Assembly: GCA_963734495.1 (NCBI GenBank)
Contig: CAVTHK010000010.1
Coordinates: forward strand, 32,001 to 96,000
Source of the DNA: an uncultured Spirochaetota bacterium
Lineage (GTDB): Bacteria; Spirochaetota; Spirochaetia; SZUA-6; CAVTHK01
Direction of reading: 5' to 3'
Length of the DNA: 64,000 bases
The translations under genes were made by a program, and so were the position numbers. The notes below the pieces were generated by a model. The model was not told the origin of the DNA, did no database searches, and saw only the letters and a list, made by a program, of their open reading frames with translations. Position 1 is the first letter of the stretch. Each line of letters starts with the position of its first letter. This document shows, in pieces, positions 28,802-42,540 of this stretch.

Positions 28802-30157
28802 CTATCGCGGTGGCCTGCGGGATTCCAGGTGTGCGTTGATGGTCCGGCAGAGCCACTCCTTCTCGCGGTCCGTGAGCGAGGTCCCCAGCCGCATGCGCAC
28901 CGCGCCCGCCTCGAGCACGCAGACGGTTTCGCGAACCCGCGGAGCCGTCGGCTGCGTCTCGATGCGGCAAGGGCCGACCTCCGAGAGAGGAACCGTCATG
29001 GCGCGGGAAAAGGAAAAGAGCCTTCTGACAAGGGTCATCTGCGAGGAGCCGAGGACGATCTCGCTCCTGCCGAAGACGCTGTTCACGGTCCGGTACATGA
29101 GATAGATGCCCACGCACCAGAACGGGATCGAGAAAAGGGGGAAGAAGATCGGCGCCCCCATTGCGATGGCCGAGACCGTCCAGAACGCGACGAACGCGAG
29201 CCAGAACGCCGAGAATCCCCCCTGCGCCACCGCGGCGGCCCCGAGAACCCCCTCGGGTACGACGATCACGCGCCCGTCCCGGCCCTCGCGGACCTGGATC
29301 CGCGAACCGAAGGGCTTGTCGCCCGCGGCCGCAGCGCTCCCGCGGCGCCGGCAGGCGCGGCGGTCCCCGCGAGCAGCGCGATCGCGCGCTCGACCGGGAG
29401 CGTGCGCCGCGATTCGTCCGGCTCGAGGTAGCTGTCGAGCACCTCCGCGAGCGCGGGCGACACCTCGATCGCCGATCGGAAGTCCAGCTTGAGGTCGCGG
29501 GTCGGGAGATCGGTCGGGTCGCAGTGCGTGAGCAGGACGACGATCGTGACGGCGACCGCGTACAGGTCCGAGCGCACCGTCGCGCGTCCGAGCATCTGTT
29601 CCGGGGGAACGTAGTCCGGGCGTGCCGATCACCGTGTTGCCTCCGACCGCCTGCAGACGCAGGACGTCCTGCACGCCGCCGAAATCGACGAGGTAGACGG
29701 TCCCGTCGTCGGAACGCAGCACGTTCTTCGGGTTGATGTCCCGATGCACGATGGGGGGCCGCAGCGAGTGGATGTAGCCGACGATGGCGAGAAGCCGCGC
29801 GCCGATGTCACGGATCTGCTCCTCGGTGCCGCGCCACCCGGACGACACGAGCGCCCGAAGGCACGGCGCCGCGATGTACTGCTGCACCAGCCCGAACGTG
29901 TGCTGCCCGTCGATCTCCGCGGCGAAGGAGTCTACGTACCGGGGAATCGAGGGGTGGTTGAGGCTCTTGAGCACACGCGCCTCGCGCTCGAACAGCTCGA
30001 CCTGCGTCCACCCCCGCACGTCGGACATGCGCAGCAGCTTGACGACCACCTGCCCGCCGCTTTCCGTATCCTCCCCGAGGTAAGCGGTCCCCTGGCCTCC
30101 CTGCCCCAGCGGCCGCAAGAGCCGGTAGCGGCCGCGGACGAGCTCGTTCGTCTCCAT
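28802..30157 (-). CDS. Hanks-type Ser/Thr protein kinase with C-terminal membrane domain
   Basis: LGQGGQG, VVVK, FEREARVL, HRDINPKN, DFG; TM hairpin FSAFWLAFVAFWT...FSIPFW. Confidence 0.88.
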   Translation of the reverse strand: METNELVRGRYRLLRPLGQGGQGTAYLGEDTESGGQVVVKLLRMSDVRGWTQVELFEREARVLKSLNHPSIPRYVDSFAAEIDGQHTFGLVQQYIAAPCLRALVSSGWRGTEEQIRDIGARLLAIVGYIHSLRPPIVHRDINPKNVLRSDDGTVYLVDFGGVQDVLRLQAVGGNTVIGTPGLRSPGTDARTRDGALGPVRGRRHDRRPAHALRPDRSPDPRPQAGLPIGDRGVARARGGARQLPRAGRIAAHAPGRARDRAARGDRRACRRRGSAAAAGDKPFGSRIQVREGRDGRVIVVPEGVLGAAAVAQGGFSAFWLAFVAFWTVSAIAMGAPIFFPLFSIPFWCVGIYLMYRTVNSVFGRSEIVLGSSQMTLVRRLFSFSRAMTVPLSEVGPCRIETQPTAPRVRETVCVLEAGAVRMRLGTSLTDREKEWLCRTINAHLESRRPPR

Positions 30158-35123: not shown

Positions 35124-35155
35124 GGCCGCGCTCGCGAGAGAGGTTGAAGGGAGAG

Positions 35156-37004
35156 ATGATGACAAAGGTCCACGCCGGGTTCGCGCGGGTGGTGGCCGCG
35201 GGCCTGCTCCTGGCGGCGGCAGCCGCGGGCGCGCAGACCATCCACCGCGGCAACGGGATCGCGATGCGCGGCGAGCCGAAGTATCGGCCGGGGTTCGCGC
35301 ACTTCGACTACGTCAACCCTTCCGCGCCCAGGGGCGGCAGCGTCGTCTATGGAGACGTGGGGAGCTTCGACAACCTGAATCCCTTCATCCTCAAGGGTGA
35401 AGTCGCAGCGGGCGCCGGCTCGATCTTCGAAGCGCTGATGGTGGAGTCGCTGGACGAGCCGTTCACGATGTACGGCCTCCTCGCGGAGACGGTGGAGTAC
35501 CCCGACGACCGATCCTGGGTCGCCTTTACGCTGAACCCGAAAGCCCGGTTCCAGGACGGCACGAGCGTCACCGCCGAAGACGTGGTCTGGACGTTCGACA
35601 CGCTGAAGACCAAGGGGCATCCCTTCTACCGCTACTACTACAAGGAGGTCCAGAAGGCCGAGGTCACCGCGCCCCGCACCGTGAGGTTCACGTTCGCGGG
35701 CAACCCGAACCCCGAGCTGCCGCTCATCGTGGGCCAGCTCCCCGTGCTTCCGAAGCATTACTGGGCAGGCAAGGACTTCGAAGACACGACGCTCGTCGCC
35801 GCCGGTGGGGAGCGGGCCGTACAAGGTCGCGAGCGTCGACCCCGGGCGATCCATCACGTACGAGCTCGACCCCGGCTGGTGGGGAAAGGACCTGCCCGTC
35901 AACGTCGGACAGGACAACTTCGCGCAGATCCGCTACGACTACTACGCGACGAGGGGGTTCAGCGAGAGGCGTTCAAGGCCGGGAACATCGACCTCATGGT
36001 GGAGAGCACCGCCAAGGAGTGGGCCACGGGCTACAACATCCCGGCCGTCCAGAAGGGGCGTCATCGTCAAGCGCAAGATCCCCAACAACAACCCGCAGGG
36101 GATGCAGTCCTTCGCGTTCAACACCCGCAGGGCGATCTTCCAGGACCGCAGGGTGCGCGAGGCCATCGGGGATGCCTTCGATTTCGAGTGGTCGAACAAG
36201 AACCTCTTCTACGGCGAGTACACGCGGACCAACTCGTTCTTCGCGAACTCGGAGATGGCCGCGACCGGGCTTCCGGGCCCCGCCGAGCTGCAGGCTGCTC
36301 GAGAAGTACCGCGGCAGCGATCCCCGACGAGGTCTTTACCAGGGCCTACGAGCCGCCGAAGACCGACGGCTCGGGCGAGATCCGCGAGGGCCTGAGGAAC
36401 GCGTTCAGGCTGCTCGCGGATGCGGGGTGGAAGGTCACGAACGGGCAGCTCGTGAACACGAAGACCGGCGAGGCCATGAAGTTCGAGATCCTCCTGGTCC
36501 AGCCGGCCTTCGAGCGGATCGTTCTTCCGTTCAAGAACAACCTGCAGCGGCTCGGCATCGAGGTGAGCGTCAGGACCGTCGACACGTCGCAGTACCAGAA
36601 CAGGCTCGACAGCTTCGACTTCGACATGATCGTGGCGTCGTGGGGCGAGTCTCTCTCGCCGGGCAACGAGCAGCGGAACTTCTGGGGCACGCAGGCCGCG
36701 GACACGCCCGGCTCGCAGAACTACGTCGGCATCAAGAGCCCGGTGGTGGACGACCTCGTCGACCGCATCGTGGCCGCGCCGACCCGCGAGGACCTCATCG
36801 CCGCCTGCCGGGCGCTCGACCGCGTGCTCCTCTGGGGCTACTACGTCGTCCCGCAGTGGTACCAGGCCTCCTACAGGGTCCTGTACTGGGACAAGTTCGC
36901 GGCTCCGGCAGCTCATGCCGAAGTACTCGCTGGGCCTGACCACCTGGTGGATCGACCCGCAGAAGGCCGCCACGCTCGACAGCCGCAAGCGCGCGCTGCG
37001 CTGA
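35156..37004 (+). CDS. yejA: Peptide ABC substrate-binding protein YejA (frameshifted)
   Basis: GEPKY, HFDYVNPSAPRGG, FDNLNPFILKG, LSPGNEQRNFWG, ALDRVLLWGYYVVP. Confidence 0.88.
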
Positions 37005-37020: not shown

Positions 37021-38790
37021 TCAGCCCCGTCGAGGAGGCAGCATACCCAGCCCCGCTTCCCTCAGGCCGCGGGCTGCCTCCACGATCGCAGGCCACCAGA
37101 CGAGCAGCTCGCCGTACTCGCGCACCATCGCGCGGCAAAGCTCCATCGCCTCATCCGGGCTGCGCCCGGATCGCAGGTCTATGGGAACCAGGCCGCCGGG
37201 CGTGGTCAGCGCGTCGATGACCGAATCGATGTGCGCCCTCACGTCGGCCGCCCAGTGGTCGGGGGATTCCGAGTAGATGCGCAGCAGGTCTTCGAGGTGC
37301 TCGATATACGCGCTCAGGCCGTGCATCCAGCGATCACGAAGGTAGAGACTGAAGTCTGCCGCGGCGAGAGCCGCGACATCCTTCAGGTAAGCGCCCGTCC
37401 TCGCCAGCCCTTCCGCCCTCGACTGCGGAAGCGCGTTCTGGCTGCGGTCCTCCAGCAGCATGATCACCGTGTCCGAGATGCGGGGCGCCCAGGTGCGGAG
37501 CGCGCCCTCCGGAAAGCTCCTTGCGCCCGGCGGGTCGTGCAGAACAGCCAGCGGAAGATGGCCGACCATGCCGTCGGCGACAGCGGCTCGCAGAACCGCC
37601 GCGAAGACGCCGTCCTCGTTCCGCCCGACCGGGAAGAACGGAGGAAGGAGATCGCGGTTGTCGAGAGCGCTGCACCCGGCCATGAAAGAGCGCCCTTCAG
37701 TGATCGTCAGTCGTTTCACGACCCGGACCATCTCCCGGCTCGACGAAGCGATCGCGTAGCTCTGGGCCGGGGACACGATCGCTTCCCGGTCGTCCCCGGC
37801 GAGGGTCAGCAGGTAGCGAGGCGCAGCCAGACCGCAGTCGCCGGCGATGCCGGCCGCAGCGGCAAGAACGACGGGATCGCTCTTGAGGAGCCTGCGCACC
37901 AGGACCGGTGCTGCGCGGTCCGCGAGAAGCGCAGGCCCCGCCGCCGCGACGCACGCGGAAACCGTGCGGCCGAGCAGCCGCTCGTGCCAGCCTACGATGT
38001 CCACGTCGGCACGAGCGTTGGCGTTCAGCATCTCCGCCCGGTCCCGGTAGGACCTGACAGATGCAGGGTCGTGAAACGAGTAGAGCTCCAGCGTACCCGG
38101 CTCGCCAGAGGCGACGAAACGGTGCACGATGTCATCGTCGGAGCACATCACGAGGTCGCCGACCGTCCCGAGCAGCAGAGAGTTCCGGTTGGCGCCCGCT
38201 GCCATGCCGAACCCGTGGGGGTCGAAAAGCGCGAACTCCGCCAGCGCCGGCGGAAGATCGGCCCGAGTCCGGAGCAGCTCGGCGAGAAATGCACGCTTGC
38301 GGGATATGTCGACGAGGTCGGCGGTAAAGGGCGCTGCCTTCGGTTTCCCCGAATCGTCGAACACTGCATAGCGAACCGGTCGGCCGCCGGCGCGGGTGAC
38401 CGCGACCAGGCTCTCGACGCTCCTCGCCAGAAGATCCGGCCGGTCCCTCGTCACCCATGCCGCGATCGCGATGGCCGGCACGTCGCTCGGGCGTTCGCGT
38501 TCGGCCAAGGCGCGCACGAAATCTGCTTTCGCGAGCAGAAGACCCTCGCGGATCAGCCCGTTGATTCCCGCCTCGATGTTGCGCGCGGCCTCGTCGGGCC
38601 AGCCGGCATCGAGCAGATGCTGGACGTGTCCACGGGCAGTTCTGAAACGATCACACTGCTCGAGGATCTGCGGCAGCGGATCTTCGAGCCGCACGACGCC
38701 GCCGTCGGGCCGCAACGCGAGGGCGCGTCCCTCGCCCGCAGGCACGAACTGCTCAGCACACCCGATGTACTCGGGCTCGGCGGAGGGCAT
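37021..38790 (-). CDS. Hypothetical enzyme: N-terminal RRE/PqqD-like winged helix plus GT-A-like domain
   Basis: ILEQCDRFRT...IEAGINGLIREGLLL; WVTRDRPDLLARSVESL, VFDDS, GANRN, CSDDD, RNEDG. Confidence 0.55.
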   Translation of the reverse strand: MPSAEPEYIGCAEQFVPAGEGRALALRPDGGVVRLEDPLPQILEQCDRFRTARGHVQHLLDAGWPDEAARNIEAGINGLIREGLLLAKADFVRALAERERPSDVPAIAIAAWVTRDRPDLLARSVESLVAVTRAGGRPVRYAVFDDSGKPKAAPFTADLVDISRKRAFLAELLRTRADLPPALAEFALFDPHGFGMAAGANRNSLLLGTVGDLVMCSDDDIVHRFVASGEPGTLELYSFHDPASVRSYRDRAEMLNANARADVDIVGWHERLLGRTVSACVAAAGPALLADRAAPVLVRRLLKSDPVVLAAAAGIAGDCGLAAPRYLLTLAGDDREAIVSPAQSYAIASSSREMVRVVKRLTITEGRSFMAGCSALDNRDLLPPFFPVGRNEDGVFAAVLRAAVADGMVGHLPLAVLHDPPGARSFPEGALRTWAPRISDTVIMLLEDRSQNALPQSRAEGLARTGAYLKDVAALAAADFSLYLRDRWMHGLSAYIEHLEDLLRIYSESPDHWAADVRAHIDSVIDALTTPGGLVPIDLRSGRSPDEAMELCRAMVREYGELLVWWPAIVEAARGLREAGLGMLPPRRG

Positions 38791-38853
38791 CAGGGCCGGA
38801 TCGCGTCGCCTTCGTGCGAACACGCCGTGCTCGCTGCCGGCGGCGTCGAAGCG

Positions 38854-39324
38854 TCAACATACCTGGCCCGTCAGGGTCAGCACGTATGAGCCGTTGTCGG
38901 GGTCGTCGCTGACGATCGTCGCCTTCGCGCGCCTGTCGCCGTTAGTGGCTACCAGCGGAAATCGGATCACGAACTCGACTTATTCCCCGGGCTCGATGTC
39001 CGTGAGCTCCGCAGGCTGACGGGTAACACTGAAGAAGCTCGCATCCGTCCCGGAGATGACCACCGGGCGTCGTCCCCTCCAGATTCAGGTACCCCTTCCC
39101 GTCGTTGTAGATGACGAAAGGTCATCGACACCGGACTCGCGGTACAGCACCGGGCCGAAATCGTATGACGAGACCGGCGCTCCCCCCTGCTCGACCGATA
39201 TCTTGGGGTCCAGGACGCTGTACGCCACTATGTCGCGCAGGATGACCGTGTCGCACCCCGAGAGCAGCGCCACGAGGAGCAGCACGACCGGTACGTTGAT
39301 CAGGTTCCTGGCTATTCTTCCCAC
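38854..39324 (-). CDS. Lipoprotein with Ig-like (choice-of-anchor D-like) domain; frameshift near 39115
   Basis: LLSGC lipobox; YDFGPV...IYNDGKGYLNL...ISGTDASFFSV...IVSDDPDNGSYVLTLTG. Confidence 0.7.
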
Positions 39325-42300
39325 AGCACTACCCCCCTTGTCTGGCTCGCTTCGGCGGCGCGGGCCGCTTCGTCGCCCCGGAGCTCCAGGTACGAGAAAC
39401 GCTCCGCCATCGCCGGCGCGAGCTGCTTGACCCTGGCAAAGGCCTCCCGCGCCGATCCGTAGTTCTCCAGCTCGTGGTGAGCTCGCGCGATCCCGAGGAG
39501 CACGCTCGCGCTGTCCGGAGTCTGCTGCCTCGCCCGCTCGTAGAAGGCCAGCGCAGACTTCATGTCCCCGCGGACGAAGAACAGGTTGCCCAGGTTGATC
39601 AGCGCGGGCGCAAACTCGGTCTGACGGATGGCAAGGCGGAACTGACTCTCCGCCTGGTCGTCGAGGCCGTAACGGGCGTAAACCACGCCCAGCTTGTTGA
39701 CGGACCGCGGGCTGTTGTTGGAGGAGCGTATCTCGGCCTGGACCCTCGCGACCTGCGGCGAGATCTCGCGGTCGACCAGACGGCCCAGCTCGGAGCCGAA
39801 CGCAGCGGCGAGCTGCGACTCGGCCGGCAGCGCGATCGCGACTTCGCCCGGGTACCCGGTCGGCTCGTAGCTCCGCCAGCCTTCGTGAACAGGGTAGAAG
39901 GCCGCCTTGCCGCCGGTCTTGTTCTCACGCCACTCCCGCGCGCCGACATCCCACGCGGTCAAGAAGCCCCCGGCGATCTCCGTGACCTCGACGGGCACCC
40001 ATGCCTTTCCGCCTTCGAAGATGAGGTCATCCGGCCGGACGTAGGCCTGGCGGGCCTCATCGGGCGACTGCGCCAGAGCAAACGCCAGGTAGATGTGGCC
40101 CGGTATCGTTATGAACGCGGTCTCCACGCCTACCGACTCGAGAAGCGCGCTGAACAGGATAGACAGATCGTCGCAGTCGCCGGCCTTGTACTCCAGCGAC
40201 TGCTTGGGGAACTGCAGGAAGTCGATGGTCGAGCCGCTCTTCGAGAACTCCGCGTACGGCGTGCTCGGGTCGACGACGTACTTCATCCCGTAAAGCTTGA
40301 GCGCGGTATGAATGCTCATGGCCGCGAGCACGTTCATGTCGATCGCGCGGCTGCCCCTTTCCCGAGCCAGGCCGGCGGCTGCCTTTGCGAACTTGAGCAC
40401 CGCGGGGTCCTTCGCCGTGACAAAGGCGCTCGCCTTCCGGTCATCGTCCCAGGTCATGGCGTTGCGGCCCTGGATTCTCATGGACTCGATGCGCTCCGCA
40501 GCGCGCTCCCGGTTTCTCACCGTGTACAGCACTGTCACCTGGGTGGAGATCTTGGTGCCCTCGGAGATCGAGAGCACCGCGTCGGTGAAGAGGCCGTAGA
40601 TCTCGAAGTCCCTGGATTCGCCGGGCGGAACGCCGACGGACTCCTGGCGCACCTTGGGATTGTCCATGTACTGACGGGCCAGGAAGCTCACGCGCACGTT
40701 CTCCGCGGGTGCCGCCTCCCAGTTGTGTACCGTGATCTTCCCCACGGGATGATCGTCGTAGTACTTGTAGAACACCGGGAAGATGTTCTCGAAAGTGAGG
40801 CCGCTGATCTCCAGGCCCCGCCCTGGCTGGAAACGCCGCTCCAGGGTCCCCGGCTGCACGTAGTCGGGCGCAGCCACACCTGAAGCGATCCGGATTTCCG
40901 ACCCGAGCGACACGGCCCACGCATCGAACAGGTCCGGGTACCTGCCGTACGAGGCATCTACCCCGATGTGCATCGACGGCGAGACGCGGAGCTTCAGGCC
41001 CGCGCCGGACAGAACAAAGAGGTTCCCGCCGGCATCTCCCGACCCGTCGTTGACGATACCGCCGTAGTATCCAGCCCCGGTATGCACGTCCAAGCTGAGA
41101 TCCGGCGTCAGCCCCAGATCGACGCCGACCTGGGCGCCGATCGTCAGTCTCGACAGGGTCACGTCACCGGGCGTTGTCGCATAGCCGTACCCGACGCCGG
41201 CTCCCGCGTACAGAAAGGGGAACGCCGGGTTCGTCACGATGCCGGACACGTTCAGGCCGCCCAGAAGATCGTAGAGATCGCGATCCTGCCCCACCGGAAG
41301 CTCGACTGTCGGCGCCACGCGGACGGCGAAGGCCGCGACGCCCTGATCGGCGGCGGCAGGGAGCAGCGCGAGCGGGCGCGGCCTCGCCGGGACGCCGCCG
41401 CCAGCAGGTGCAAGCGCGCGCGAGAAGCCCAGCGCGACGACCCACGAGTCCTCGAGATCGAGGTAGCGGCGATAGGATCCCTCGAGGTCCATCGCCCAGG
41501 GTCCTTCGAGCGCGTATGAGAGCCCCGCCCCCGCGGCGACGAAAGCGCCTCCCCCGCTGGCAGACCCGTCGTTCAACAGGCCGTGGTAGTAGCCGCCCTT
41601 CGCAAATGTCTCCAGGGAGACGTTCGGCGCGAGGCCCAGCGACATCCCGACTCCGCCGCCGATGTCGACCCGCGAGAGGGAAGGACCCGCACTTGTCGGA
41701 ACGAACCCGTACCCCAGGTCGCCCGTCATGTAGAGCAGAGGCATCGCGGGGCTGCGCAGCACGGCCGAAAGCTCCAGGCCCCCGCCCGGCGCGTACAGAT
41801 CGGAATCGCCGCCGGCCGGGATCTGCACGACCGGCGCGGCTCTCAGCGAAACGGATGCCGAAACGGGGGGCCTGCTCTCCCTCGGGGGGCCGATCTTCAG
41901 GATGGCGCCAACGGAGACGGTCCAGGTGTTCTGGAAGTCGAGGTAGCTGTCGTAACCGGCCTGGACAGCGACGTCGATTGCCCGGGACGCCTCGTATTCG
42001 AGAGACAGCCCCGCGCCTGCGTAGGGATCGCCTCCCGAGCTCGAACCTTCATTCAGCATGCCGTAGTAGTAGCCGGTACGCCCATAGAACCCGCCCCGCA
42101 GCCCTCGCACGAGATCGATCTCGACGCCGAGTCTCGCTCCCGCCGACAGCCTGGATACCGAAGGTCCCTGCTCCTGCGAGGGCACGTAGCCGTAGCCCAG
42201 GTCCCCTGCCACGTAGACGGCCTGCTGGATGCCCGGGTATACGCGGGCGCTGAGCCCGCCCGCGGCTCCGGCGGTGAGGACGTCCGCATCCGAGCCGGAC

Positions 42301-42407
42301 GGCAATTCGAGGCTCGAATAGAGGTGCAGCAGAACGGGCGATTGCGACTGCGCTGCCGTCAGGGTTGCCGTCAGCAAGAGGACTGTTGGAAGAAACGGTC
42401 TTCTCAC
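39312..42407 (-). CDS. Secreted 1031-aa protein: three tandem OM beta-barrel-like repeats, transglutaminase-like domain, TPR
   Basis: Signal peptide; three ~165-aa repeats; GDCDD...PGHIY...WVPVE; TPR NKLGVVYARYG...ALINLGNL. Confidence 0.75.
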   Translation of the reverse strand: MRRPFLPTVLLLTATLTAAQSQSPVLLHLYSSLELPSGSDADVLTAGAAGGLSARVYPGIQQAVYVAGDLGYGYVPSQEQGPSVSRLSAGARLGVEIDLVRGLRGGFYGRTGYYYGMLNEGSSSGGDPYAGAGLSLEYEASRAIDVAVQAGYDSYLDFQNTWTVSVGAILKIGPPRESRPPVSASVSLRAAPVVQIPAGGDSDLYAPGGGLELSAVLRSPAMPLLYMTGDLGYGFVPTSAGPSLSRVDIGGGVGMSLGLAPNVSLETFAKGGYYHGLLNDGSASGGGAFVAAGAGLSYALEGPWAMDLEGSYRRYLDLEDSWVVALGFSRALAPAGGGVPARPRPLALLPAAADQGVAAFAVRVAPTVELPVGQDRDLYDLLGGLNVSGIVTNPAFPFLYAGAGVGYGYATTPGDVTLSRLTIGAQVGVDLGLTPDLSLDVHTGAGYYGGIVNDGSGDAGGNLFVLSGAGLKLRVSPSMHIGVDASYGRYPDLFDAWAVSLGSEIRIASGVAAPDYVQPGTLERRFQPGRGLEISGLTFENIFPVFYKYYDDHPVGKITVHNWEAAPAENVRVSFLARQYMDNPKVRQESVGVPPGESRDFEIYGLFTDAVLSISEGTKISTQVTVLYTVRNRERAAERIESMRIQGRNAMTWDDDRKASAFVTAKDPAVLKFAKAAAGLARERGSRAIDMNVLAAMSIHTALKLYGMKYVVDPSTPYAEFSKSGSTIDFLQFPKQSLEYKAGDCDDLSILFSALLESVGVETAFITIPGHIYLAFALAQSPDEARQAYVRPDDLIFEGGKAWVPVEVTEIAGGFLTAWDVGAREWRENKTGGKAAFYPVHEGWRSYEPTGYPGEVAIALPAESQLAAAFGSELGRLVDREISPQVARVQAEIRSSNNSPRSVNKLGVVYARYGLDDQAESQFRLAIRQTEFAPALINLGNLFFVRGDMKSALAFYERARQQTPDSASVLLGIARAHHELENYGSAREAFARVKQLAPAMAERFSYLELRGDEAARAAEASQTRGVVLWEE

Positions 42408-42440
42408 GGCCCACCTCCGGAGGTGACCAGCTCGGCCGCA

Positions 42441-42540
42441 ATTATACGCTGCAACACCGATAACGCAAGTCCGGCCAACGGGCTCCCGGCGCCGCCCTCT
42501 TCAGAGGGGCTGTTGCGATTTCGATGCCGTCGGTTATAAT
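42441..42540. promoter_or_regulatory. Back-to-back sigma70 promoters
   Basis: Minus TTGCGT-16-TATAAT (42468 to 42441); plus TTGCGA-16-TATAAT (42513-42540); palindrome CCCTCT-TC-AGAGGG between them. Confidence 0.55.

Follow-up and report, generated by a model that had tools for sequence, protein, structure and literature searches.

Organisation of the locus

We analysed a 64,000-nt window of contig C10 from the genome of an uncultured Spirochaetota bacterium (G000, ~83% complete), in which three genes, here called g1, g2 and g3, fill positions 37021-42407; coordinates without a locus label are positions in this window. As an initial annotation had proposed, the genes are co-oriented, all lying on the minus strand, and the first two overlap, g1 and g2 sharing 13 nt; 30 nt separate g2 from g3 and ~25 nt separate g3 from the end of the convergent yejA. 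The first gene, g1 (39312..42407), encodes a protein of 1031 aa with a signal peptide followed by three beta-barrels, an Ig-like domain, a putative transglutaminase-fold domain and tetratricopeptide repeats (TPR). The second, g2 (38854..39324), encodes a single-Ig (HYDIN/DUF1573-like) lipoprotein of ~155 aa, in which the lipobox Cys is followed by a helix tag and which is broken as assembled. The third, g3 (37021..38823), encodes 600 aa (589 aa if translation starts with the ATG at 38790) without a signal peptide, made up of a recognition element for ribosomally synthesised and post-translationally modified peptides (RiPP recognition element, RRE), a GT75-like glycosyltransferase (GT) core of the GT-A fold and a helical C-terminal domain. 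The position also agrees with the one given initially, with the yej operon on one side and an oppF-like gene followed by the arabinofuranosidase gene ArfA on the other. A tie to the adjacent arabinofuranosidase was considered and dropped because a relative (G019) has different neighbours.

Ahead of g1, the sequence reads as a promoter-like TTGCGT-16-TATAAT (42441..42468, minus strand) and a Shine-Dalgarno-like GGAGGT (42413..42418, minus strand). The motif put forward as the genes' own promoter is present, but its -35 element agrees with the consensus at only 3/6 positions and a consensus scan did not list it; TATAAT occurs five times in the whole window. A divergent promoter-like TTGCGA-16-TATAAT, a better site than that of g1, lies at 42513-42540 on the plus strand and points toward the oppF-like gene. 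The lower GC content that had been claimed for the locus is not there, as its value of 0.670 matches those of the flanks (0.663 and 0.666), and the idea of a GC island was abandoned. Only GC at third codon positions is reduced, at 0.84 and 0.80 versus 0.90-0.96 in five neighbouring genes.

In the assembly, the g2 reading frame is shifted twice at short homopolymers, near 39118 and near 39066, by changes that compensate each other, and it is also interrupted by a TAA in frame at 38980-38982; these breaks had gone unnoticed in the initial annotation. The lipobox Cys is seen in spite of the broken frame, a translation with X placed where the frame breaks shows 41% and 38% identity to the intact homologues P0163 and P0162, and the assignment to the HYDIN/DUF1573-like Ig domains is backed by Pfam matches of g2 homologues. 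The assembly is rich in errors: of 273 open reading frames (ORFs) queried against G001, 177 passed the identity and cover filters, and 58 of these 177 genes are broken, with 0.38 frameshifts/kb, 0.09 stops/kb and at least three breaks in 10 of the 177. Since three breaks are seen in g2 where ~0.2 would be expected, both assembly error and a true pseudogene are possible, and the module would still work here only with an intact g2.

Lipoproteins encoded ahead of g3 often end in Cys or Ser

The last codon of g2 (38857..38859, minus strand) encodes a Cys, the proposed acceptor tag, and a terminal Cys is also found in P0162, P0163 and the homologue of G003. In relatives, the gap between g3 and the gene upstream is mostly <80 nt. 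Among 32 hand-picked g3 neighbours that served as a discovery set, the last residue is Cys in 10 and Ser in 6 (16/32). For a held-out test, 37 further loci were retrieved; after removal of three repeats and of one contig lacking any upstream gene, the nearest co-oriented upstream ORF was picked by script in the remaining 33, two of which are fragments and were scored as misses. The upstream gene ends in Cys or Ser in 22/33 of these loci versus 7/63 control lipoproteins without g3 (Fisher p 3.7e-8, a value inflated by related genomes, which are not independent); by hand count, 11 of 18 genera have mostly Cys or Ser. The same two residues end 43/310 other ORFs and none of the 25 lipoproteins that are coupled to g1 and lack g3 (two of an original 27 rows, neither tagged, were artefacts and were dropped), and of the 67 lipoprotein-like ORFs of G000 itself none ends in Cys and one in Ser. 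The link between transferase and lipoprotein drawn in the initial annotation is, with these statistics, better backed than it was when proposed.

The tag spans unrelated lipoprotein folds (Ig, NHL propeller, Fn3 and cadherin-like). In 36 chosen positives the last codon is TGC in 10, TGT in 8, TCN in 12 and AGY in 6, followed by TGA (19), TAA (9) or TAG (8), and these mixed codons suggest that selection acts on the protein. A cause at the nucleotide level, such as a start overlap, a ribosome site or selenocysteine readthrough, was rejected on the mixed codons and stops. Aromatic residues occupy position -4 in 17/36 and position -3 in 15/36 of the same positives. Non-adjacent paralogues often lack the tag (G047, G214, G286), and untagged neighbours often end in Tyr, which is one base from Cys, with several cases of Tyr, Trp and Gly.

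The pattern might also arise if g3 were a hitchhiker that lands in variable surface-gene regions with no functional tie, the tag then being inherited noise. Such an origin would suit the varied contexts of the family outside spirochaetes and statistics inflated by related genomes, but it sits poorly with a tag that is found in unrelated folds, in 11/18 genera, with both Ser codon families and also with a second, unrelated enzyme, and we regard it as quite improbable.

A small GT-B gene takes the place of g3 in other loci

That second enzyme emerged from what looked like a counter-result, namely a terminal Cys in 8/16 NHL lipoproteins that have no g3 beside them. Behind all eight (8/8) lies a 290-aa gene that is unrelated to g3 and has a C-terminal match to GT28, of the GT-B fold; the gene is present in exactly those 8 of 61 relatives, and five of the eight genomes have no g3 match. 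These lipoproteins became the strongest support for the tag through the replacement of one transferase by another. The gene lies, for example, at L327:9358-10260 (G003), and also in L321-L328 and L334-L363, behind Cys-ending lipoproteins. In 25 further, held-out loci, 21 have a readable upstream gene, and 13/21 of these end in Cys or Ser. The family occurs in 32/401 genomes of the class, with Atlas clusters also in Myxococcota, and searches of PDB sequences with its profile and with that of g3 returned nothing significant. Two unrelated transferase folds are encoded behind lipoproteins whose last residue bears a thiol in some cases and a hydroxyl in others, and the simplest reading of this pattern is S- or O-glycosylation of that residue.

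g3 encodes a predicted relative of the GT75 enzymes

In the structure model of g3 (pLDDT 92), residues 4-97 (38500..38781, minus strand) form a PqqD-like winged helix of three strands and three helices that aligns with the RREs of MccB (Z 9.4, root-mean-square deviation (rmsd) 2.5), TigE (Z 9.3) and MibB (Z 8.6). The GT-A core follows (37516..38484, minus strand), with D218-D219-D220 (38131-38139), D318, R390-x-x-D393 and H418. Across 113 sequences, D219, D220 and H418 are conserved in all 113, D218 in 112, D318 in 109, R390 in 108 and D393 in 107. Residues 103-578 are closest to the GT75 proteins UAM2 (Z 21.6, rmsd 4.2, 315 aligned) and MtdL (Z 19.6, rmsd 3.7, 301 aligned), clearly above the next fold at Z 13.3, and Foldseek gives E 4e-6 to the GT75 fold; SunS, a glycocin GT-A enzyme, aligns at Z 9.3. 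The initial annotation had described a GT-A DxD transferase with an RRE, of which the fold and the RRE were recovered, but the nearest relatives are GT75 mutases rather than a generic DxD enzyme.

In the excerpted description of the NDP-pyranose mutases and reversibly glycosylated polypeptides of GT75, represented by MtdL and rice UAM (PMC9937993), the residues available for comparison are the DDD motif, the metal His, R-x-x-D, D195, the self-glycosylated R159 (rice R158), Q229 and D87. Set by order and spacing, the residues of g3 correspond to the DDD motif (D109-111), the metal His (H287), R-x-x-D (R257 and D260) and D195 of MtdL, and the fold is shared as well. Unlike the GT75 enzymes, to which it is 13-15% identical, g3 has an added RRE and a longer helical tail, is encoded behind lipoproteins and has no conserved Arg at the place expected for self-glycosylation: between D220 and D318, where MtdL R159 would be expected by spacing, no Arg column exceeds 75/113, and a Gly stands at the place equivalent by spacing to D87. 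R352 (104/113) lies later in g3 and could substitute in space for the missing Arg. Neither Pfam nor NCBIfam profiles match g3, and the GT75 profile PF03214 matches 0/201 genomes of the phylum, including G000, while a Haloferax control matched. Judged from the model, g3 is probably a GT75 relative by fold and core residues, although the family profile does not recover it.

Alternatively, g3 could itself be a GT75-type NDP-pyranose mutase or another donor-making enzyme, with a different transferase modifying the tail. The two top folds and the retained DDD, His and R-x-x-D are in keeping with such a role, as are the tandem g3 pairs and the GT2 and short-chain dehydrogenase/reductase (SDR) epimerase/dehydratase genes that come behind g3 in some loci. 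Yet no near-invariant Arg occupies the place of the essential R159 (best 75/113), the equivalent of D87 is Gly and PF03214 does not match; a mutase would need neither an RRE nor one copy per lipoprotein, g3 is the sole sugar enzyme of this operon, and elsewhere a GT-B gene replaces it. On balance we find a mutase unlikely.

g1 and an overlapping lipoprotein gene form a common envelope module

The structure model of g1 (pLDDT 81) contains three tandem barrels (40884..42335, minus strand; residues 25-172, 185-332 and 359-508) that are mutually 31-44% identical and have the eight antiparallel strands and ~150 residues of the OmpA/NspA/OmpW type. A g1 barrel aligns with NspA at Z 18.5 (rmsd 2.4, 148 aligned) when the model is compared by fold, and PF13505 matches the G019 orthologue. 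The secondary structure of the model then gives an Ig-like beta-sandwich (40473..40814, minus strand; residues 532-645), which is followed by a transglutaminase/cysteine-protease-like domain (39858..40442, minus strand) and a TPR domain (39372..39767, minus strand), the last supported by Pfam TPR matches above cut-off and by fold comparison. The triad C745 (40173-40175), H771 and E807 is invariant in 27/27 aligned homologues, and PF01841 matches at E 5.5e-4 (20.6 bits vs a cut-off of 23); Foldseek with the whole protein gave poor barrel matches only, and the fold lists are dominated by barrel and TPR matches. Thus, of the folds predicted initially, the barrels, TPR, RRE and GT-A were recovered, and the transglutaminase fold rests on the sub-cut-off PF01841 match and the invariant triad.

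Both ends of an OmpA-type barrel are periplasmic, and the enzyme domain of g1 would by analogy face the periplasm. Its Cys-His-Glu triad, as read from the sequence, would fit proteolysis as well as cross-linking. The periplasmic transglutaminase-like Cys protease LapG, which acts with the adhesin LapA, offers a parallel in that a Cys-His-acid enzyme adjoins an envelope protein with Ig-type domains. Unlike LapG, g1 is barrel-anchored, carries Ig and TPR domains, has Glu as its acid and has a lipoprotein as partner; PF06035 (LapG/BTLCP) is absent among the 17 Pfam hits, and the loci hold no LapD or type I secretion system (T1SS) adhesin genes. Residues 555-781 also match positions 12-240 of NCBIfam NF058533, the N-terminal region of Prometheus ProA (E 9.4e-11, 39.9 bits vs a cut-off of 1500). 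g1 has no helicase or nuclease parts, and an anti-phage role was rejected. The similarity between window positions 39858-40750 and the ProA N-terminus suggests that an Ig-transglutaminase module is perhaps common to both.

The g1 family matches 55/61 relatives, 42 with E <1e-50, often in several copies that are mostly one-barrel. We called a lipoprotein gene coupled when it starts between 19 nt before and 7 nt after the stop of the g1-family gene. Of 30 g1 loci, a script found a coupled lipoprotein in 19 and three more were found by eye, while three have none and five end at a contig end; coupling therefore holds in 22/25 evaluable loci (including the three added by eye). The start codon of the lipoprotein overlaps the codon of a conserved terminal Trp of the g1 family. 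The coupled lipoproteins have different folds and, behind the lipobox Cys, a common amphipathic helix (median helix moment 0.59, n=19, vs 0.29, n=91; p 2e-8). The initial proposal that g1 is associated with a lipoprotein can be extended, as the sequences suggest a near-universal association in g1 loci, and g1 with its overlapping lipoprotein gene is a common envelope module of spirochaetes that our incomplete literature search did not find described. A one-barrel paralogue in G000 itself (G000:C11, L034:1465-11622) is followed by two giant lipoproteins (1513 aa, Big_13; 1162 aa, LVIVD).

The triad is a junction of two modules

The initial annotation viewed the three genes as a dedicated unit and proposed a neighbourhood survey for recurrence. 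The triad does recur in two other genomes: the same intact g1-g2-g3 order is found in G019, which belongs to another family (45% GC), and G275 has g1, two lipoproteins and g3. It is not obligate, as it occurs in three genomes only, including that of the window, with g1 widespread without g3 and g3 mostly without g1. In three sets of loci, g1 otherwise stands beside g3 in one distinct locus of 55, 0/78 and 1/37, and the g1 control loci have no g3 match. The lipoprotein is the constant partner of both g1 and g3, and we therefore read the triad as a junction of two modules. The orders in G019 and G275 could be explained by an obligate machine of three genes, whose g3 glycosylates a lipoprotein that g1 then cross-links or anchors, but apart from the rarity of g1 beside g3 in the three locus sets and the absence of g3 from the control loci, the Cys/Ser tag goes with g3 and not with g1, and the 25 untagged partners suggest that g1 acts on unglycosylated lipoproteins. 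Such a machine seems very improbable.

Spread and contexts of the g3 family

The g3 family comprises 3013 clusters at E 1e-30, and the named records of the closest relatives are Spirochaetota, so that the source organism is presumably a free-living spirochaete. It occurs in 11/61 relatives and in 62/401 genomes of the class, 42 of these at E <1e-15. Most spirochaete g3 genes lie behind a lipoprotein in a cassette that also encodes FecR and an outer-membrane barrel, and a CHASE2 adenylate cyclase gene is often close by. A recurrent cassette (L021-L024, L026, L028, L321-L332) consists of a 150-aa exported protein, a 440-aa outer-membrane barrel, FecR and the lipoprotein, and faces the cyclase gene; the combination of barrel, FecR, lipoprotein and CHASE2 looks like a trans-envelope signalling unit. 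G000 contains a second g3 locus of this kind (C9, ~115400-123800; L032:5397-13500), with a small protein, a barrel, FecR, a Tyr-ending lipoprotein and two heavily frameshifted g3 paralogues. An SDR epimerase/dehydratase gene adjoins g3 genes in L275, L276, L288, L290 and L293 and hints at a pentose donor; it presumably resembles a UDP-glucuronate decarboxylase by motif.

The cassettes raise the question of whether the terminal Cys or Ser serves another chemistry, either as the site of a glycan or glycolipid anchor or in a RiPP-like tailoring after which the tail is cut off as a small glycopeptide signal to the FecR/CHASE2-cyclase system. The RRE fold and the cassettes themselves would agree with this, as would the extra GT2 genes in two loci and non-spirochaete relatives beside a C39 peptidase transporter. 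However, the cassettes have no protease or precursor gene in common, the tail forms the final strand of a folded domain, and the locus described here has neither FecR nor a cyclase. We consider this fairly unlikely.

Outside spirochaetes, the family is fused to nonribosomal peptide synthetase (NRPS), GT2 or FkbM domains, with the RRE kept, or lies in varied contexts. In P0016, P0047, P0108, P0117 and P0157 it ends NRPS or polyketide synthase (PKS) proteins right after a carrier domain, usually with the RRE, and it is possible that this end is a tailoring or release domain, perhaps an unrecognised one. An NRPS role was rejected for the spirochaete loci, as no A-domain match was found in 78 loci or in this region of the window. 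Acidobacterial relatives (L072, L126, L143, L146) stand behind exported proteins that are rich in Cys toward the C-terminus (at -2 or -3) and are possible substrates under a similar logic. In a planctomycete locus (L088:3403-11285), two genes of the g3 family follow those for HlyD and a C39 peptidase ABC transporter; the locus is a candidate glycosylated RiPP cluster.

Proposed mechanism

With moderate confidence, we propose that two separable modules share g2: while the lipoprotein is still cytoplasmic and awaits export, g3 would glycosylate its terminal Cys or Ser, and g1 would handle it separately in the periplasm. From the folds, conserved residues, gene order and tag statistics we infer the activities, donor, compartment and direct binding as follows. 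The g3 protein would be a cytoplasmic, metal-dependent nucleotide-sugar transferase that attaches a sugar, through the side chain of the terminal Cys or Ser, to the product of the lipoprotein gene just upstream. As g3 lacks a signal peptide and the lipoproteins carry Sec signals, transfer would take place in the cytoplasm and precede Sec export, and since the locus has no room for a precursor gene, the lipoprotein would be the only co-encoded substrate. The RRE, which would be optional, may help to grip the still-unfolded, aromatic-rich C-terminal strand. In other genomes the small GT-B enzyme would do the same job, and the SDR epimerase/dehydratase and GT2 genes may provide the donor or lengthen the glycan. 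The g1 protein would be anchored in the outer membrane by its barrels, with the Cys-His-Glu enzyme and TPR facing the periplasm, where it would recognise the amphipathic helix behind the lipid anchor of the coupled lipoprotein and cleave, transamidate or escort that protein. The g2 lipoprotein would carry both tags, the N-terminal helix and the terminal Cys.

Several observations weigh against this proposal. The nearest solved folds of g3 are mutases and not protein transferases. The RRE is kept in the non-spirochaete fusions, so it need not read a lipoprotein, and it is absent from several lipoprotein-linked g3 relatives that also follow tagged lipoproteins. Held-out neighbours are untagged in 11/33 g3 loci and 8/21 GT-B loci, 9/36 other lipoproteins within g3 loci end in Cys or Ser, and outside spirochaetes there is no tag signal (2/15 and 1/21). 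In the window itself, the helix moment of g2 is a modest 0.36, a weak fit, and g2 may be a true pseudogene in this genome.

A broader claim is possible but doubtful, namely that the terminal residue forms a general glycosylation code for spirochaete lipoproteins, the last Cys or Ser being read by an RRE-guided GT75 relative or by a small GT-B enzyme that adds an S- or O-linked, possibly furanose or pentose, sugar, while the N-terminal helix of these proteins directs them to a handler with a protease fold in the outer membrane. If true, this would bring RiPP-style substrate reading to envelope proteins and would make g3 the first GT75 relative that glycosylates another protein.

Relation to known systems

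Dedicated cytoplasmic protein glycosyltransferases such as TibC/Aah and GtfA/B are encoded beside a surface protein, which they modify before export. HMW1C, according to the excerpt available (PMC4550697), is likewise a cytoplasmic enzyme that glycosylates a co-encoded adhesin. All of these belong to other enzyme families and act on many internal Asn or Ser sites of substrates that are not lipoproteins, whereas a single terminal residue would be modified here. The glycocin S/O-glycosyltransferases are alike in their GT-A fold and their acceptors, glycocin F carrying an S-linked sugar on its C-terminal Cys and a sugar also on Ser (PMC4786598, in excerpt). In contrast, the g3 substrate would be a full-size exported lipoprotein and not a bacteriocin, and the g3 loci have no precursor, C39 transporter or immunity gene. 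The RRE-dependent RiPP enzymes share the RRE fold with g3, but the small precursor peptide gene of those systems is not found at this locus. Fusions of an RRE to a glycosyltransferase have been catalogued as uncharacterised, and the portions of the RRE-Finder work at hand (PMC7470986, PMC12710340), compared by description only, give no substrate, GT75 link or lipoprotein. In our literature search, the coverage of which was incomplete and mostly left out subscription papers, neither module nor the terminal tag was found described. Dedicated cytoplasmic protein glycosylation is already known; what appears new is that both the acceptor and the enzyme are unusual and that the system is linked at this locus to a widespread spirochaete envelope module, itself undescribed in the literature searched.

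For a large unnamed enzyme family, and for the RRE-glycosyltransferase fusions left open by RRE surveys, the analysis puts forward a concrete substrate that can be tested, namely the residue at the C-terminal end of the adjacent lipoprotein. Terminal-Cys S-glycosylation has been described for a bacteriocin and on a folded lipoprotein would be new; it would also connect the self-glycosylation chemistry of GT75 with the glycosylation of other proteins. A portable enzyme that reads a tag of one residue would be of use for site-specific protein glycosylation, and the g1 module is relevant to the handling of the many lipoproteins of spirochaetes.

Other features of the window

The neighbouring yejA (35140-36996) is split by several frameshifts, and a low-depth contig of DNA run X1, the contigs of which do not cover g2, differs from the assembly by an indel at 36907 within this gene, which is consistent with assembly error. 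A gene for a Ser/Thr kinase that ends in a membrane domain occupies positions 28802-30157 and probably contains an internal frameshift.

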